From: Ostreococcus lucimarinus
Lineage: Eukaryota
Direction: 5' to 3' (one strand)
Assembly (NCBI GenBank): GCA_000092065.1
Contig: CP000582.1
Length of the DNA stretch: 64,000 nucleotides
A model generated the notes under the pieces. The model worked only from the letters and a program-made list of their open reading frames with translations. It was not told where the DNA came from and searched no databases. Positions 18,285-57,145 of the stretch are shown piece by piece; the stretch's first letter is position 1, and every line of letters begins with the position of its first letter. The position numbers were made by a program, and so were the translations under genes.

Positions 18285-18805
18285 CGTCGCTCTTTGTGGC
18301 CTTTCGTTTTCTTTGACGCGACGGGTCGGTTGCCTACGAGATATAGCCACTATTACCACGCGCTACCGTCTTCGAAATTAACGGCGACTATTCGAAAAAC
18401 CGCGACGAGTTCGCCCTTCGCTAGCCGGGGCTTTGTTGGCAGCTGGGAGGATTCTTAAAGGACCGTTTGCGTGTTTGCTATCAGGCCGACTTCAGGCCGG
18501 CAAAAGCATGTTATATATTAGCTAATTCCAATCACAGTAACATATGTGACAGAGACCGCAAAATACGCCATCTTCACGACTCCGATTCATATACATGTGA
18601 ATATATTCAAACTCATAAAGTGCCTATCAGTCCAGAGCTTATCGTTACACCGCGCTGCCATCATGACTCGTCATGTGTGTAGGTACTCTCTAAAGGGGCG
18701 ATATAAATTTTTCCGCCAGATACACGTAGCTGTCTCTTGTCTTTTGAATACTCTGCGTTCGAATTTGAACACGTCGTCAAACGACACCTCTACGCGCGCG
18801 AAAGC

Positions 18806-20959
18806 ATGGCCGATGAAGCATACACGCGAGAGCGGGAGCTTATACGAGAGTTTCTTCAGACATTCGAAGGGAGAGACGGCAGCCCACATTACCGGCGCGC
18901 GCTGCAAAAAGTTTTGGACCGCCAAAGTTGTTGCGTGGACATCGATTTGCAGGACGTGAAAGAGTTTTGCGGGGCACTTGAAGAGCGCGAGGAACTCTTA
19001 GACCGGATCACGTCGAATTGCAAACGCTACGCTACTTTATTTGCGGAAGAAATTGACGGATTGATAAAAAACCTGGCGTCTTCGAGTGCTTCACTCTCTG
19101 AAGTCGGTGAAGATGATCTAGACGTGTTTCTGCAGCGGCATTCCGATGATATTGGCGAGCGAAGCGAAAATCCAGCACCCGAAGTGTTACGACGTGCATT
19201 TGATGTTTTCTTCAAACCCCTGAAAGGAACTAAATCTCTCAAGATGCGCGACATACGGGCTAATATGATAGGGCACTATGTCACTTTCAAAGGCATGTGT
19301 ACACGGATAACTGATGTGAAGCCGCTCATCAAGGTAGCCTGCTATACATGTGAAGGTTGTGGACACGAGTACTTCCAAGAAATCAATGGCAACGAATTCA
19401 TCCCGAAGCAGTTCTGCCAATCGCAAACTTGCAACAAAAAGTTTGCACTATTCATTGAAACACGGGCGTCAAAATTTGCAAAATACCAGGAGGTCAAAGT
19501 GCAAGAAATGTCAGAAGACGTGCCGATCGGTCACGTTCCTAGGTCAATGTCGATATCACTGATCGGTGAAATGACTAGAAAGCTTGCTCCGGGAGATACA
19601 ATTGATATCAGTGGAGTTTTCCTACCACGTCCAAGTGTTGGATACTTGGGCAACTCAAGTCTTGTTTCGACCACATACTTGTATGCAATGTCGGTCACAC
19701 CGCATAAGTCGAAGACAACTAGCTCGGATGCGACTCCGGAGGTGCTGGAGAGGCTGCATAAGCTCAGAGAAACCCCAGACATATACACGCACTTAGCAAA
19801 ATCTATTGCCCCTGAAATTTATGGCCACGTTGACATAAAAAAAGCTCTTTTACTGTTGCTATGTGGTGGAGTAACGAGAACACTCCAAGATGGTGTCAAG
19901 ATTCGTGGTGATGTTCATGTTTGTCTTATGGGCGATCCCGGTGTTGCCAAATCCCAGCTGTTGAAACAGATAGTCTCTATTGCAACTCGCGGAGTTTATA
20001 CAACTGGGCGGGGCAGCAGTGGTGTAGGTCTTACAGCGTCAATTCAAAGAGATAACATTACAAGCGAATTAGTGCTAGAAGGTGGTGCGCTCGTACTAGC
20101 TGATAAAGGTATATGCTGCATAGACGAATTCGATAAAATGGAAGAAAGCGATCGAACGGCTATACATGAAGTCATGGAGCAGCAAACCGTCAGTATCGCG
20201 AAAGCTGGGATAACCACAACTCTAAATGCACGAACAACAGTCCTCGCAGCAGCAAATCCGGCATTTGGTAGATACAATACAGCTGCTACACCCCAGGAGA
20301 ATATTAATCTACCGGCGGCACTCCTAAGTAGGTTTGATTTGATGTGGCTTATTTTGGACGTTCCTGATCCCGACTCTGACATTGAACTGGCTCGCCATGT
20401 TATGAGCGTACATCGCGAAGGTCGCCCACCGTCCACAAGTTTTGATCCAGTCTCAACCTCTGAACTGCGAGCTTACATAGATGTCGCGCGGCATTTTGAC
20501 CCTTACATCCCGGAAGACCTTGCAGACGACATCGCCAGTGCATATGCCGGTATTCGTCAGGTTGAAGATGAAGCTGGAAGTGAGGCGACTGGTTATACCA
20601 CCGCTCGTACGCTACTATCTATCATTCGACTTGCAGAAGCTCTCGCACGGCTCCGTTGGGCACCTATTGTCTCCGGGAAAGATATCGAACAGGCACTCAA
20701 CCTGATGAAGATGTCGAAGGCGAGTCTAGAAATTCACAAGTCGTCAACAGCACTACGCTCGGATCCCGTCGAGAATTTGTATTTGCTTCTACGGAACTGG
20801 GCTAGTGATCACTCGAATCAATTCATAAGCGCTTCTATAGTTCGTCAGCTGGCGACGAAAAGTGGCTTATCAGGTGTCCTTGATGCTTGCATGAGTGAGT
20901 ATACGGCTCTCGGGGTGTGGGTTATGGACAGTGACAGCAACATAACGTTCGTAGACTAG
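18806..20959 (+). CDS. MCM7: DNA replication licensing factor MCM7, single exon, 717 aa.
   Basis: Zinc finger YTCEGCGHEY...QFCQSQTC, Walker A GDPGVAKSQLL, Walker B/arginine finger CCIDEFDKM...SDRTAIHEVMEQQTVSIAKAGITTTLNARTTVLAAANP, and MCM7-specific N-terminal blocks. Confidence 0.9.
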   Translation: MADEAYTRERELIREFLQTFEGRDGSPHYRRALQKVLDRQSCCVDIDLQDVKEFCGALEEREELLDRITSNCKRYATLFAEEIDGLIKNLASSSASLSEVGEDDLDVFLQRHSDDIGERSENPAPEVLRRAFDVFFKPLKGTKSLKMRDIRANMIGHYVTFKGMCTRITDVKPLIKVACYTCEGCGHEYFQEINGNEFIPKQFCQSQTCNKKFALFIETRASKFAKYQEVKVQEMSEDVPIGHVPRSMSISLIGEMTRKLAPGDTIDISGVFLPRPSVGYLGNSSLVSTTYLYAMSVTPHKSKTTSSDATPEVLERLHKLRETPDIYTHLAKSIAPEIYGHVDIKKALLLLLCGGVTRTLQDGVKIRGDVHVCLMGDPGVAKSQLLKQIVSIATRGVYTTGRGSSGVGLTASIQRDNITSELVLEGGALVLADKGICCIDEFDKMEESDRTAIHEVMEQQTVSIAKAGITTTLNARTTVLAAANPAFGRYNTAATPQENINLPAALLSRFDLMWLILDVPDPDSDIELARHVMSVHREGRPPSTSFDPVSTSELRAYIDVARHFDPYIPEDLADDIASAYAGIRQVEDEAGSEATGYTTARTLLSIIRLAEALARLRWAPIVSGKDIEQALNLMKMSKASLEIHKSSTALRSDPVENLYLLLRNWASDHSNQFISASIVRQLATKSGLSGVLDACMSEYTALGVWVMDSDSNITFVD

Positions 20960-20961
20960 TT

Positions 20962-22992
20962 CTATGCCAAATCTACTCTTAGAGAAACAATCTTCTGAGC
21001 ATCACTCTCTGATAGTTTCCACGAAGACTGATGCCTCATATCAACCAGATAATTTTCAACTTCGTTTTGAGTCTCTGCACTCAATACGACACTAAGTTGT
21101 GTAAGACGTGCAAAATTTTCTCTCACTCGAAAACTGCTCGCACCCGATAGCCCAGAAATCATTACTCGTAGTTCTCGCTCGAACTTTAAAGCACCTAAAT
21201 GATTAAAGCTTAAACGCGTTTTCACAATATTTTCCAGTCGTGTCGATAAGCCTTCGCTTGCGAGCTGGATAAAGAGCTCAGAACTTTCCTTGATCATCAC
21301 TTTTGTCGCCACGCGGAAATGGTGCAAGAGAAAGACCAATATATCACTTACCCACGATTCAGTACGCTCAACAGTCTGGTAAGCTTCTTCTGATATTATG
21401 TAGCTTCCGCGTGCGAACTGCTCACATACAGTCGATAACTGATTCAGGCGTTCACGTACCAAGTTAGACACACATGAAACATGCCAGCTGTTGAGCTCAT
21501 CATATAAAATTCTCAAACTAACAAGGCTATTCGTTAGTTCACTCGTATCAAAACCTGTCGTGAAAATCTTAGACATCATGCACTCCACATCCTTTATGAG
21601 CTCTTGTATGCGAATCGACATGGTACTTGTGGCATTCATGGCTAAGACTGCGTTGTGCACACCGGCGGTAACATTTGATGTGCTACTCATGCCCTTATTT
21701 TCGATCCAAAATACCTCTGCAATAACCTCTACACTCTGATTCAGATACACTTTCATCGTTTGTTCTGAGAAATCTGTGAGAAACTTGTTCACCGTGCGTA
21801 AAATTGTTGCGATGATATGTGGCTCTGTCAACGCAAAAGCCCGCCTTGTACTCCGACCAATAACAAAAAAAACGTCATCCAATGAAACATTTTGTGCTCC
21901 ATCATGGTGCGCGTTATACGCTTCATAGAACGTTTGCATACTCACCTTGAAGTGTTTTTCTTCAAGTTTCACATAATATTCTGCGAGCGTGTGCAGCACT
22001 GGAAAAACTTCGCGGCAGTCTTGACTAACCACCGTGTGAAGCGGCGGATTGTCATACTCCATTGTTAACGGAAACTTCACAAATATCACATGCTGTGCTT
22101 TACATATTCTGTTGACCAGGACGATATCTTCCACGGCTGTGTCTAACTGTACCAAGTTATCAAATTTTATCGTCAAATTGTCCAGAACACAAGTTTTCAA
22201 GTGGTCATCATATTCGACCAAAAATTTTTCAACTAGCGAAGACCAAGTACCGACAATCGCGGCAAAAACAAAACTAACCGCTTCAGAAGGCTTTCTTTCT
22301 TTCGAATATGTTTGCAGTTGCGACAAAAAGCTTCGGATAGTCTCGTACAAGGTATTGAGAGGCAACATGCTCACTCTCGCTGGTATTTGCCCCCTGTCCA
22401 AATTCATATTTTGCGCATTTTCGTATCTTGCAACCATAGTCTCGCGAATTGACGTAGTGACGGCATCTTCGACAACGTGATGGAGCTCTATTCTAACCAA
22501 TTTATCCACTATATGGAGAACATTCACAAGATCATCAACCACGAGTGCTGACTGACAATAACTCGACGTAGCATTCCGAACAAAGCAGTGTACACTAGTC
22601 AAGGAACTCTCAATGTCAATGTCGGTTTTTGAGCGCACGTTTGATCGCGACTTATGTAATCTAAGCAAATCTTCGTACGCATTCAACGCTTCGATTAAGT
22701 CCCCTTCGTTTGTTTTCTCTGCTAATTTCTCTGTGAGTATAAGAAGTTCCTGGTTGAATTGCAATATCTGGCGAACACGCAGTGCGTTCAAGAGTGCATT
22801 TGAGAACTTATGCAGATCTTTCGTGATAGCTTGGCCAGTACTGCTACGCTGTACATGTTTGCCTTCCCTTGTTGCGCTATGCTCAAAGTAAAGCTCGTCG
22901 AGCCACGCTGACTGGCGATCTTTCTCCATGTAGTCGTCTTGTATACTTTTAGGGTCGACGTATCCAATCTTGCGATAGATGCGTCGTCCCAA
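20962..22992 (-). CDS. COG4: Conserved oligomeric Golgi complex subunit 4 (COG4)-like.
   Basis: C-terminal RENFARLTQLSVVLSAETQNEVENYLVDMRHQSSWKLSESDAQKIVSLRVDL aligns with the COG4 C-terminal domain (RDKFARLSQMATILNLE...[20 protein letters not shown]). A long helical body lies upstream. The N-terminus may have further exons. Confidence 0.7.
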   Translation of the reverse strand: MGRRIYRKIGYVDPKSIQDDYMEKDRQSAWLDELYFEHSATREGKHVQRSSTGQAITKDLHKFSNALLNALRVRQILQFNQELLILTEKLAEKTNEGDLIEALNAYEDLLRLHKSRSNVRSKTDIDIESSLTSVHCFVRNATSSYCQSALVVDDLVNVLHIVDKLVRIELHHVVEDAVTTSIRETMVARYENAQNMNLDRGQIPARVSMLPLNTLYETIRSFLSQLQTYSKERKPSEAVSFVFAAIVGTWSSLVEKFLVEYDDHLKTCVLDNLTIKFDNLVQLDTAVEDIVLVNRICKAQHVIFVKFPLTMEYDNPPLHTVVSQDCREVFPVLHTLAEYYVKLEEKHFKVSMQTFYEAYNAHHDGAQNVSLDDVFFVIGRSTRRAFALTEPHIIATILRTVNKFLTDFSEQTMKVYLNQSVEVIAEVFWIENKGMSSTSNVTAGVHNAVLAMNATSTMSIRIQELIKDVECMMSKIFTTGFDTSELTNSLVSLRILYDELNSWHVSCVSNLVRERLNQLSTVCEQFARGSYIISEEAYQTVERTESWVSDILVFLLHHFRVATKVMIKESSELFIQLASEGLSTRLENIVKTRLSFNHLGALKFERELRVMISGLSGASSFRVRENFARLTQLSVVLSAETQNEVENYLVDMRHQSSWKLSESDAQKIVSLRVDLA

Positions 22993-23107
22993 ACTCGCGA
23001 TTGCGAGTGGAAACAGCCAGCTACTATGCTGCTATCCACCTATCCACCCGCAAAGTCAGGGTCACCGACGTACAGTCCACCGTGACTGCTCAGATATTCA
23101 GGCAGGG

Positions 23108-23114
23108 AAAAAAA
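23108..23114 (-). terminator. T7 run on the minus strand, a candidate RNA polymerase III terminator downstream of the permuted tRNA-Leu unit.
   Basis: Plus strand reads ggcagggAAAAAAAttatgc, which is TTTTTTT on the minus strand. It lies about 55 nt past the end of the 5' half. A TTTT run lies even closer. Confidence 0.35.
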
Positions 23115-23166
23115 TTATGCGGGCGCGCCATCTCTATCTATTGGAGAAAATTTTCACACAATACGA

Positions 23167-23274
23167 CTTAAATCCACCCCCTTAGACCACTCGGGCATCC
23201 TGGCGCTTTTTCCTTCTTTTTCGTCTTTCTGCCAGGAATGGGGTTCGAACCCATGCGCACATTGTACAGTGGGT
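23167..23274 (-). tRNA. tRNA-Leu(UAA): Circularly permuted tRNA-Leu(UAA) gene. The 3' half (23230..23274) precedes the 5' half (23167..23204), with a 25-nt linker.
   Basis: On the minus strand the 3' half is A-CCCAC (positions 38-43), variable arm TGTACAATGTGCGC, T-arm ATGGG-TTCGAAC-CCCAT, acceptor 3' strand TCCTGGC, discriminator A. The linker is GAAAGACGAAAAAGAAGGAAAAAGC. The 5' half is GCCAGGA TG CCC-GAGTGGTCTAA-GGG G GTGGA TTTAAG, ending at position 37 with anticodon TAA. Acceptor strands pair 7/7. T-arm and acceptor closely resemble human tRNA-Leu-TAA. No 5' half lies upstream of the 3' half, and no T-arm lies downstream of the 5' half. One A-C mismatch sits at the 31-39 pair. Confidence 0.55.
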
Positions 23275-23425
23275 AGTTCGTATTTGACGAGTCACGAAGA
23301 CAGTGCAGCCCACACACCAAAGTTGAACTATGTTGCTACGGTGTTCTTGACCCCTCCGTGCGAGGTCGCTTGTCGCCACACTGACTCCAGCGTCACTCTC
23401 CGGTGGTAGAACTTGAGGACTTGCA

Positions 23426-24430
23426 ATGAATACTTGTGGTTCACCGATAGCGAGACCACTTCACTGTAAGCATGTCTTTCATATGTCTAGACGGCCTGGG
23501 CGCCGCATGATGCTACACTCTAGCCGAGACGACGATGTCTATGTTTCACGCATTTACGAGGCCCTAAAACTGCAGTACGGCGAAACCAGCGCAAAACGCG
23601 TTCTGCAAAGTCTTTCGTTCGCGGCCGCAGGCCAAGAATACACTCGCTTCCATCCTGATAAAGGTTTGCAAAAGGCTTCGTCTTACATAACAGGACTATC
23701 AGCTGAACCCTTTCACGATGTCAGTTCACCCCATTTCACTTGGATGATGCGACTTGAAGAAGAATACTCCATCATTCGAGATGAACTAAACAGTGCGCTT
23801 CTAAACCCACGACTAACGACGCTTGGAAATCACATTTGGGCGTCGGCGGCAAGGGAGGAAGCGATTGCATACGGCCCCGACTGGAAGACCCTTGTACTAC
23901 AAGACCGCTGTGTCTGGGAAGACACAAATTGTAAGTTGTTTCCAAAGACAGTCGAACTTTTGCGGAAAAATTCTGTACCATCTGTCGAAGTGTTTTTCGC
24001 GCGACAAGCACCAGACACGGGGATAAAACCGCACACCGATAACACAAACTTCATACTCACATCGCACTTGGGCTTGGACGTTCCTGAAGGCGAATGCTGG
24101 ATGAAAGTCGGGGAGTTTAAACGTGAATGGATGAATGGTCGTGGTATGATCGCAGATACAAGTTTCATACACAGTACCGCGAATGAAAGCCGAACACAAA
24201 CACGTTACGTTCTCATAGTTCGTTTCTGGCATCCTGATCTCACTCCCGAAGAGTGCTGTGCATTGCAGTTTCTTTTTGATGCGTTGAACGAATCTTCAGA
24301 AGATGGCATCGCCAATGCAATGAAACTTGCGACCAAACGTCAGGGCAAATCGAAGCCAGTTTTGGGAAAGGCGAGCAAAAAGCGGGAGAAAGCTGGTGGT
24401 TTAGGTTTGCTAGCAAAGGGCATGAAGTAA
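23426..24430 (+). CDS. Aspartyl/asparaginyl beta-hydroxylase family protein (2OG-Fe(II) oxygenase, AspH/LpxO-like).
   Basis: Cupin core with the HxD...H iron triad in GIKPHTDNTNFILTSHLGL. Also WMMRLEEEY, CKLFPKTVELL, YVLIVRFWHPDLTPEE. The exact start codon is uncertain. Confidence 0.7.
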   Translation: MNTCGSPIARPLHCKHVFHMSRRPGRRMMLHSSRDDDVYVSRIYEALKLQYGETSAKRVLQSLSFAAAGQEYTRFHPDKGLQKASSYITGLSAEPFHDVSSPHFTWMMRLEEEYSIIRDELNSALLNPRLTTLGNHIWASAAREEAIAYGPDWKTLVLQDRCVWEDTNCKLFPKTVELLRKNSVPSVEVFFARQAPDTGIKPHTDNTNFILTSHLGLDVPEGECWMKVGEFKREWMNGRGMIADTSFIHSTANESRTQTRYVLIVRFWHPDLTPEECCALQFLFDALNESSEDGIANAMKLATKRQGKSKPVLGKASKKREKAGGLGLLAKGMK

Positions 24431-24609
24431 ACATTCGAGTTGGCCCTCACATAGAGCTATTGAAAGCTCGACGTACCGTTAAAGATTTCTTATTAACAAT
24501 TTTGCCGCTTAACAAGTCGAAGTCGCGCAGTTCGTCCCATAGATGAGAAATCGTACAGAGACAGTGATATATTTGCGAAATTATCTCTACAGCATTTCTC
24601 TTCTTGCTA

Positions 24610-25539
24610 TCACGCCTTCTTGGTGTGTTTTTTCCTGAGCTTCGCGGTGGCGATGTGCTTGGAGTAATAGAAATGTCCAAACAGCGCCAGCAGGCTAATC
24701 ATGTAAAAAAGGAGTATCTTTGACAAGAACTTCGGGTATTCTGAAAAATATGCACAGTACACGGCCTGTAACAGATTGCATAGAAATTGAAGCATCTGCA
24801 TCTGCGTCAAATGTCGACCCCACCAAAGGTACTTAACACGTTTGTCGTTGTTTTTCCCGATCAGAGCCGATAGCAGATAGTACGTGTACATGCACACGTG
24901 TACCCAAGAGTTCAGTGCTGCACTGAAGTAAGCATCCCCACCCGGAGCTCGACGTGCGATCATCCACCATATAAACGAAATAGTGCTGTGATGGTAGACA
25001 TGCAAAAAGCTTACTTGGCGTAAGTTTCTCTTCAGTAGCATTATGAATGTATCAACGAACTCATATATCTTGCTCACGTAAAAGAGGTAGATGTAAAACG
25101 CAAGCTGCTTTTCATTCACGTTGAACTTATTTCCCCATAGCTTATATCCACTTTTGTATGCTTCGACGATACAACCGATGCACATATACAAACTTAGTAA
25201 TATGAGGAATGCATTGTGGCAAATCACCGATGCTTTTAACCATGTGGGATCCCAAATCTTTGTGTTTGTTGTTGCGGATAAGACGCGGTACGATACAACG
25301 ACCGTGACCAAGTACACGAGAAGGCTGGTGATCAGAGGAGTTGGTGAGGTTATGGCGGGTAAATGTGAGGTGGTGGGGCTCAGCGGGTCGAGCTCCCAGC
25401 CTAACCAGTCAGCGCAGGAGAAAACTACTTTCGAAATGATTGAGTCCCACGCCTTCCAGTAGTGTCGCAACATCGGGTAGGTAGTTTGCTCGCTCCAATC
25501 GTCGATACGTGAAGATGAGGCGCAGGAAGAGATTGCCAC
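24610..25539 (-). CDS. Fatty acid elongase, ELO/ELOVL family.
   Basis: ELO His box LHVYHHSTISFIWW, several transmembrane helices, and a C-terminal lysine-rich ER retention-like tail KLRKKHTKKA. Confidence 0.85.
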   Translation of the reverse strand: MAISSCASSSRIDDWSEQTTYPMLRHYWKAWDSIISKVVFSCADWLGWELDPLSPTTSHLPAITSPTPLITSLLVYLVTVVVSYRVLSATTNTKIWDPTWLKASVICHNAFLILLSLYMCIGCIVEAYKSGYKLWGNKFNVNEKQLAFYIYLFYVSKIYEFVDTFIMLLKRNLRQVSFLHVYHHSTISFIWWMIARRAPGGDAYFSAALNSWVHVCMYTYYLLSALIGKNNDKRVKYLWWGRHLTQMQMLQFLCNLLQAVYCAYFSEYPKFLSKILLFYMISLLALFGHFYYSKHIATAKLRKKHTKKA

Positions 25540-57051: not shown

Positions 57052-57145
57052 ATCAAATAGGCTCTGCCTGCGCAGGTTCGAATCCTGCCGTCCGCGCACT
57101 GAACAAATGCGGACGTGCCCGAGTGGTTAAGGGGTTTGACTCGAA
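57052..57145 (+). tRNA. tRNA-Ser(CGA): Circularly permuted tRNA-Ser(CGA) gene. The 3' half (57052..57096) precedes the 5' half (57109..57145), with a 12-nt linker.
   Basis: 3' half is A-TCAAA (positions 38-43), Ser-type variable arm TAGGC-TCT-GCCTGC, T-arm GCAGG-TTCGAAT-CCTGC, acceptor 3' strand CGTCCGC, discriminator G. Linker is CACTGAACAAAT. 5' half is GCGGACG TG CCC-GAGTGGTTAA-GGG G TTTGA CTCGAA, ending at position 37 with anticodon CGA. Acceptor strands pair 7/7, anticodon stem TTTGA/TCAAA pairs 5/5. Near-identical to human tRNA-Ser-CGA. The break lies at the canonical 37/38 intron site. Confidence 0.65.

Follow-up and report, generated by a model that had tools for sequence, protein, structure and literature searches.

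Sequence evidence for a circularly permuted tRNA-Leu(UAA) gene in Ostreococcus lucimarinus and for its conservation in uncultured relatives and giant viruses

Structure of the Locus

The DNA analyzed in this study was a 64-kb stretch from Ostreococcus lucimarinus, which is called the window below. The window has an average GC content of 47% and is dense in long eukaryote-type open reading frames, and the proteins encoded by its MCM7 and ELO genes match the O. lucimarinus CCE9901 proteins XP_001416209.1 and XP_001416454.1, respectively, with 100% identity. The low GC content would fit the low-GC portion of chromosome 2, which is known as the "big outlier chromosome". A tRNA-Leu(UAA) gene on the minus strand (23274..23167) is flanked by the genes for MCM7, a COG4-like protein, an Asp/Arg hydroxylase (AspH) and an ELO fatty-acid elongase. 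The codon UUA accounts for 28 of the 217 leucine codons in four neighbouring genes, so a tRNA with the anticodon UAA is needed.

The features of the locus are listed in Table 1. The original prediction had placed a 3' half, a 25-nt A-rich linker and a 5' half in this order on the minus strand, and the exact location of the strings agreed with it. The 3' half is laid out as ACCCAC-TGTACAATGTGCGC-ATGGG-TTCGAAC-CCCAT-TCCTGGC-A and runs from the 3' strand of the anticodon stem through a variable arm of 14 nt and the T arm to the 3' strand of the acceptor stem and the discriminator A73, and it does not encode CCA. The linker is purine-rich, with 16 A, 7 G, 2 C and no T. The 5' half, GCCAGGA-TG-CCC-GAGTGGTCTAA-GGG-G-GTGGA-TTTAAG, runs from the 5' strand of the acceptor stem through the D arm and the 5' anticodon-stem strand to the loop nucleotides U32 to G37. 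When the two halves were joined as 5' half plus 3' half, ARAGORN called a tRNA-Leu(taa) of 83 nt with an acceptor stem of 7/7 pairs, as had been predicted, D and T stems of 3 and 5 bp, respectively, a long variable arm and an anticodon stem of 4 bp plus A31.C39. The acceptor stem was present in all folds computed. Because the halves are reversed on the same strand and yet give a complete cloverleaf when joined, the gene can be assigned to the permuted genes of type II (junction 37/38). Its B-box-like sequence stands before its A-box-like sequence, and this inverted order is typical of permuted genes (review, Soma 2014, PMC3978253).

Table 1. Features of the permuted tRNA-Leu(UAA) locus and of the second permuted tRNA gene in the window
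Feature	Position	Strand	Sequence or remark	Basis
3' half, tRNA positions 38-73	23230..23274	-	ACCCACTGTACAATGTGCGCATGGGTTCGAACCCCATTCCTGGCA	strand reading and exact string location
Linker (intervening sequence), A73 to G1	23205..23229	-	GAAAGACGAAAAAGAAGGAAAAAGC, 25 nt	
5' half, tRNA positions 1-37	23167..23204	-	GCCAGGATGCCCGAGTGGTCTAAGGGGGTGGATTTAAG	strand reading and exact string location
Anticodon TAA	23170..23168	-	within the 5' half	
B-box-like T-loop sequence	23241..23251	-	GGTTCGAACCC, upstream of the A box	
A-box-like D-arm sequence	23187..23197	-	TGCCCGAGTGG	string location
Leader GAACT, -5..-1	23275..23279	-	-5..-2 motif conserved across lineages	
Leader arm AATACGA, -10..-4	23278..23284	-	7/7 complementary to the trailer arm	MFE fold, short pre-tRNA
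Trailer arm TCGTATT, +1..+7	23160..23166	-	complementary to the leader arm	
T4 run, +17..+20	23147..23150	-	first downstream T run, candidate Pol III terminator	
T7 run, +53..+59	23108..23114	-	stronger candidate Pol III terminator	
Permuted tRNA-Ser(CGA)	57052..57145	+		tandem-duplication ARAGORN scan
Ser(CGA) 3' half	57052..57096	+	followed by the 12-nt linker CACTGAACAAAT	
Ser(CGA) 5' half	57109..57145	+	break 37/38, as in the Leu(UAA) gene	

Detection, Copy Number and Controls

In the native gene order, no tRNA was called by ARAGORN anywhere in the 64-kb window, and there was no Rfam match at the gathering thresholds. Even at E ≤ 10, Rfam gave no match in 23100..23340, not so much as a partial tRNA, so there is no covariance-model support for the gene. 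The call on the joined halves and the absence of a call in native order are what a permuted tRNA-Leu(UAA), as originally proposed, should give. Windows of 160 nt were then duplicated in tandem and each was run through ARAGORN. This permutation scan gave 9 overlapping matches in the real window, clustered at only two loci, while the controls gave 0, 0, 0, 0 and 1 matches in five shuffles and 1 match in the reversed sequence. By the native run and the tandem-duplication scan together, two tRNA genes were detected in the 64-kb window, and both of them are permuted: the Leu(UAA) gene and a Ser(CGA) gene 34 kb away. The original prediction had said the same of the window; its further suggestion that the genome uses the permuted-tRNA pathway routinely was overstated, since 44 tRNA genes are given for O. 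lucimarinus and only 4 of these 44, a subset, are permuted (Michely et al. 2013, PMC3673656).

Even with ≤9 and ≤11 substitutions allowed, neither half recurred anywhere in the 64 kb. The absence of any further half excludes two tandem conventional genes, as had been argued from a smaller span, and the search for missing halves in conventional order beyond that span was likewise empty across the 64 kb. These results indicate that a permuted tRNA can be recognised from the raw sequence where ARAGORN and Rfam give no match.

Leader, Trailer and Terminators

The leader positions -5..-2 read (A/G)AAC in 13/13 lineages (described below), and position -6 and everything further upstream could not be aligned. 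Positions -5, -4 and -3 are able to pair with U34, U33 and U32 (G.U, A-U and A-U, respectively) as a central helix H, and C-2, U-1 and A38 are predicted to form a 3-nt bulge that bears the 3' cleavage site. The 5' cut is predicted between G37 (23167) and T+1 (23166). The elements of a possible junction motif of BHB type (hBH) are the anticodon stem, the 3-nt bulge and a helix H of 3 bp rather than 4, which is absent from the MFE folds. From the sequence we infer a role for the pairing of leader positions -5..-3 with U32-U34. Alternatively, the AAAC motif could be the CAA transcription-start motif of plant type, i.e., a Pol III start site. No upstream TATA box was evident at this locus when 22900..23500 was read on the minus strand. 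A relaxed geometry of this kind, the hBH or anticodon-intron pair, has been described for green algae (review, Soma 2014, PMC3978253).

The Ser(CGA) gene provided one comparison for this pairing. In its leader, a G at -3 faces C32 and an A at -4 faces U33, an arrangement that parallels A-3:U32 and A-4:U33 of the Leu(UAA) gene. Position 32 and leader position -3 therefore show a matching change between Leu and Ser, with n = 2, which is a single extra data point. In all the metagenomic loci obtained, there were no other permuted or conventional tRNAs beyond Leu(UAA) and the Ser(CGA) of the window.

The 7-bp leader-trailer helix (AAUACGA/UCGUAUU) was considered as a general processing helix and rejected, with p = 0.08 at this locus and a Fisher p of 0.52 over 13 lineages. 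The 7-bp complementarity is possibly lineage-specific or due to chance. The MFE of the 196-nt pre-tRNA was no more stable than that of shuffles (z = 0.29), and the global folding energy is uninformative.

There is no run of T≥4 inside the gene (23167..23274). The original prediction had found the T7 run as Pol III terminator and had missed the T4 run that precedes it. Of the 25 distinct versions of the gene from metagenomes, 20 have their first T≥4 run at +8..+21, comparable to the T4 run here. One lineage (L010, L018 and L047) has an 11-nt linker with TTTT inside it (CGCATGTTTTC), and because TTTT within a linker is tolerated there, the sequences suggest that T4 may be a weak Pol III terminator in these algae.

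Comparative Evidence from Metagenomes

Metagenomes were scanned with a degenerate pattern of T loop plus acceptor, N{5,35}, and acceptor plus D arm. The scan gave 49 loci with 25 distinct sequences from about 13 lineages, and every one of them is this permuted tRNA-Leu(UAA) gene. No difference occurs in the 5' half among the 25 distinct versions, not even in the 20 nt that had been left free in the search. In the 3' half, variation among the 25 distinct versions is confined to three sites, and it preserves pairing at all of them: one change in the stem of the variable arm is U.G to C-G, and the other two sites form a fully compensatory change in the T stem from A49-U65 to G49-C65. The linkers, in contrast, range from 8 to 34 nt and are unrelated in sequence across lineages, and the flanks cannot be aligned between lineages apart from the leader motif. 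In the 13 lineages, conservation ends exactly at G37 and restarts exactly at A38, while +1 and -1 are variable. These edges fix the 37/38 break independently of the argument by which it had originally been predicted, and agree with it. The A31.C39 mismatch had been named as the weak point of the prediction. The mismatch is present, but it is invariant in 25/25 distinct sequences, which argues for a fixed feature rather than decay.

Two metagenome contigs (L003 and L004) are identical to the window, and a second natural haplotype (L001 and L002) has the same halves with a 26-nt linker (one extra A) and two substitutions in the trailer. A 276-bp MITE-like element with terminal inverted repeats of ~72 bp, which is not in the window, was observed in the haplotype of L001, L002, L014 and L044. 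It spans 2388..2663 of L001, and its insertion point corresponds to ~23090..23094 of the window, ~75 nt past the tRNA 5' half and just beyond the T7 run. The repeat arm of this element also occurs singly, as a 55-bp copy, at 18661..18715 of the window, just upstream of MCM7.

The gene order MCM7-COG4-permuted Leu-AspH-ELO (window 18806..25473) is kept in four lineages (L010, L031, L038 and L052), whose proteins have 67-72% identity to those of the window for MCM7 and 32-38% for COG4. COG4 evolves unusually fast among the syntenic lineages. It was also observed that two proteins of an NCBI MAG labelled "Euryarchaeota archaeon", MBI20072.1 and MBI20075.1, cluster at ≥90% identity with the ELO and MCM7 proteins of L010/L052 (P0060 and P0084), and that MAG is evidently contaminated or mis-binned.

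By the pattern of these substitutions, purifying selection acts on both halves in their permuted order. The halves are invariant or compensatory, the linkers and flanks have diverged, and the synteny is kept; on this comparative evidence, we believe that the permuted tRNA-Leu(UAA) gene is functional and old.

Giant-Virus Copies

The same permuted Leu(UAA) gene, with the same break and the same leader motif, was found on contigs of giant viruses. The viral set consisted of L049 (over its full length), L054-L061, L007, L009, L012, L035 and L042. The viral versions have an 11-nt linker (CTCTTATATAA, found on eight IMG/VR contigs), a G49-C65 pair and a GC content of about 41%, and so differ from the window gene, with its 25-nt linker and an A-U pair at T-stem position 49:65. 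Genes for an NCLDV major capsid protein and a D5-type primase lie on L049, and L061 encodes a ribonucleotide reductase (RNR), an SNF2 helicase, a YqaJ recombinase and an RNase III. A permuted tRNA has previously been reported in the Bathycoccus prasinoviruses BpV1 and BpV2 (Michely et al. 2013, PMC3673656), and the likeness of the contigs found here fits this earlier report.

On the minus strand of L049, a tRNA-Ile(UAU)-like, intron-containing sequence (GCTCCTATAACTCAGTTGGTCAGAGT...CTTATA, about 38 nt, then ...GGGTTCGA) begins 3-4 nt beyond G37 of the permuted Leu gene, with no T run between the two. It received no ARAGORN call and ends at the contig edge. The arrangement suggests that the Leu gene and the Ile(UAU)-like sequence may form a co-transcribed viral tRNA cluster.

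Discussion

Three other explanations of the locus were weighed against a functional permuted gene. Permuted genes could plausibly arise when a tandem duplication is followed by loss, and a 3' half, a short spacer and a 5' half are the arrangement to be expected if a tandem pair of conventional tRNA-Leu genes had lost its outer halves and only inactive debris were left. However, such a relic should not keep halves that are invariant or compensatory only in about 13 lineages while the linker and flanks have fully diverged, nor should its conservation have edges exactly at 37 and 38. The processing-type leader motif is conserved, the synteny persists over deep divergence, no trace of outer halves is left in the 64 kb, and the gene is needed to read UUA, all of which makes a relic extremely improbable in our view. 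The 7-bp leader/trailer complementarity recalls the guide helices of split tRNAs, in which each half has its own transcript and the two are united in trans, the arrangement known from Nanoarchaeum, without a circular intermediate. We consider a split tRNA very unlikely, because a gap of only 25 nt separates the two halves on the same strand, the linker contains neither a T nor a terminator, a second promoter would find no space in the 8-nt linker of one relative, the leader-trailer helix does not hold as a general feature (Fisher p = 0.52), and circular intermediates are documented in green algae in the literature.

The original prediction had itself raised the danger of a tRNA-derived repeat, and the MITE-like element that is polymorphic about 75 nt downstream might point to a mobile-element fragment. 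That insertion, however, is outside the gene and beyond the T7 run, the gene is a single copy in the window, and its orthologues are syntenic rather than dispersed and invariant in sequence. Chance resemblance would have to account for 9 matches clustered at two loci where shuffles gave 0-1. There is hardly any probability left for a repeat, a mobile-element fragment or a chance match. In our opinion, the window very probably contains a functional, circularly permuted nuclear tRNA-Leu(UAA) gene of type II (37/38), single-copy within the 64 kb.

The permuted tRNA-Leu(TAA) of O. lucimarinus was reportedly first described by Maruyama et al. in 2010, in Mol Biol Evol 27:1070. In Table 1 of a later review, this species is listed with Leu(TAA), type II (37/38), with a 25-bp intervening sequence, and with Ser(CGA), type II (37/38), with 12 bp (Soma 2014, PMC3978253). 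The same review gives four permuted genes in total for O. lucimarinus, which are Leu(TAA), Ser(CGA), Ser(TGA) and Cys(GCA), and traces its entries for the species to Maruyama et al. 2010. Our Leu gene agrees with the published one in species, anticodon, junction and linker length and is therefore the same gene, and on these four features there is no detectable difference. Both genes in the window are therefore published O. lucimarinus permuted genes that were already known, and this is a re-discovery. The gene itself adds nothing new biologically, and the added value of this study is modest and comparative. The permuted order, the 37/38 break and the 4-nt leader motif are conserved both in giant viruses and in numerous relatives that have not been cultured, whereas the linker is free to change. 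Such a combination supports the model of an endonuclease and a circular intermediate, and the conserved features give a simple, motif-based way of finding such genes.

The DNA around the permuted Leu gene has a GC content of 39-53% over the 13 lineages, and that of the cellular loci is 44-53%. We speculated that the gene might have been fixed since ancient times in the low-GC "outlier chromosome" region of the Mamiellophyceae. This idea is tentative and we would sooner doubt it than adopt it. It was suggested by the fact that two of the four O. lucimarinus permuted genes lie in one window of 47% GC, that all 13 lineages have the gene in DNA of 39-53% GC, that the COG4/AspH synteny survives deep divergence, and that giant viruses captured the gene with its permuted order intact, in which case viral translation would depend on the splicing endonuclease and circularisation pathway of the host. 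No link between permuted genes and the outlier region was found in the literature searched.

Studies have reported circular intermediates of permuted tRNAs in red and green algae generally, and "some" of the green-algal permuted genes have been verified (review, Soma 2014, PMC3978253). The maturation pathway through a circular intermediate was established in Cyanidioschyzon merolae (2007, Science 318:450; Soma 2014, PMC3978253). For the Leu gene of this study, transcription as one unit, the action of endonuclease and ligase and a circular intermediate are most likely, as judged from that literature and from the features of the locus. RNA polymerase III would produce one RNA that consists of the leader, the 3' half, the 25-nt linker, the 5' half and the trailer and ends at a downstream T run. 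The halves would fold into a normal cloverleaf in which the linker closes the acceptor stem, while the open ends would lie in the anticodon loop and there form the anticodon stem, the 3-nt bulge (C-2, U-1 and A38) and the short helix of leader A-3/A-4/G-5 with U32-U34. This relaxed hBH or anticodon-intron-pair structure may be recognised by the eukaryotic tRNA splicing endonuclease, which would cut after G37 and before A38, and tRNA ligase would join G37 to A38 to give a circular RNA. In the 37/38 ligation product, the end of the 5' half (...GGAUUUAAG) would be joined to the start of the 3' half (ACCCACUG...). RNase P and tRNase Z would then excise the linker, and CCA would be added. The lack of an internal T≥4 run together with the downstream T runs, the conserved leader and the matching change in Ser(CGA) are sequence features that support such an endonuclease and circular-intermediate pathway.

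The permuted genes of C. merolae are like the Leu gene in that the 3' half comes first, the intervening sequence is short, a T stretch lies downstream and no CCA is encoded, and their junction is of BHB type, as may be that of the Leu gene. However, their junctions are at 20/21, 37/38, 50/51 and 59/60 and some of the genes have extra introns, whereas the Leu gene described here has the 37/38 junction only and a predicted relaxed hBH. The own Leu(TAA) gene of C. merolae is of type I (20/21) with an intron, unlike that of O. lucimarinus. The conventional intron-containing pre-tRNA (37/38) is also similar, because it is cut at the sites predicted for the Leu gene, after 37 and before 38, with a 3-nt bulge at the 3' site, and the bulge is closed by a 32:-3 pair, which would be U32:A-3 in Leu and C32:G-3 in Ser(CGA). 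It differs in that the "intron" of the Leu gene, which consists of leader and trailer, is topologically open, so that ligation would circularise the RNA and RNase P and tRNase Z would have to open the acceptor ends.
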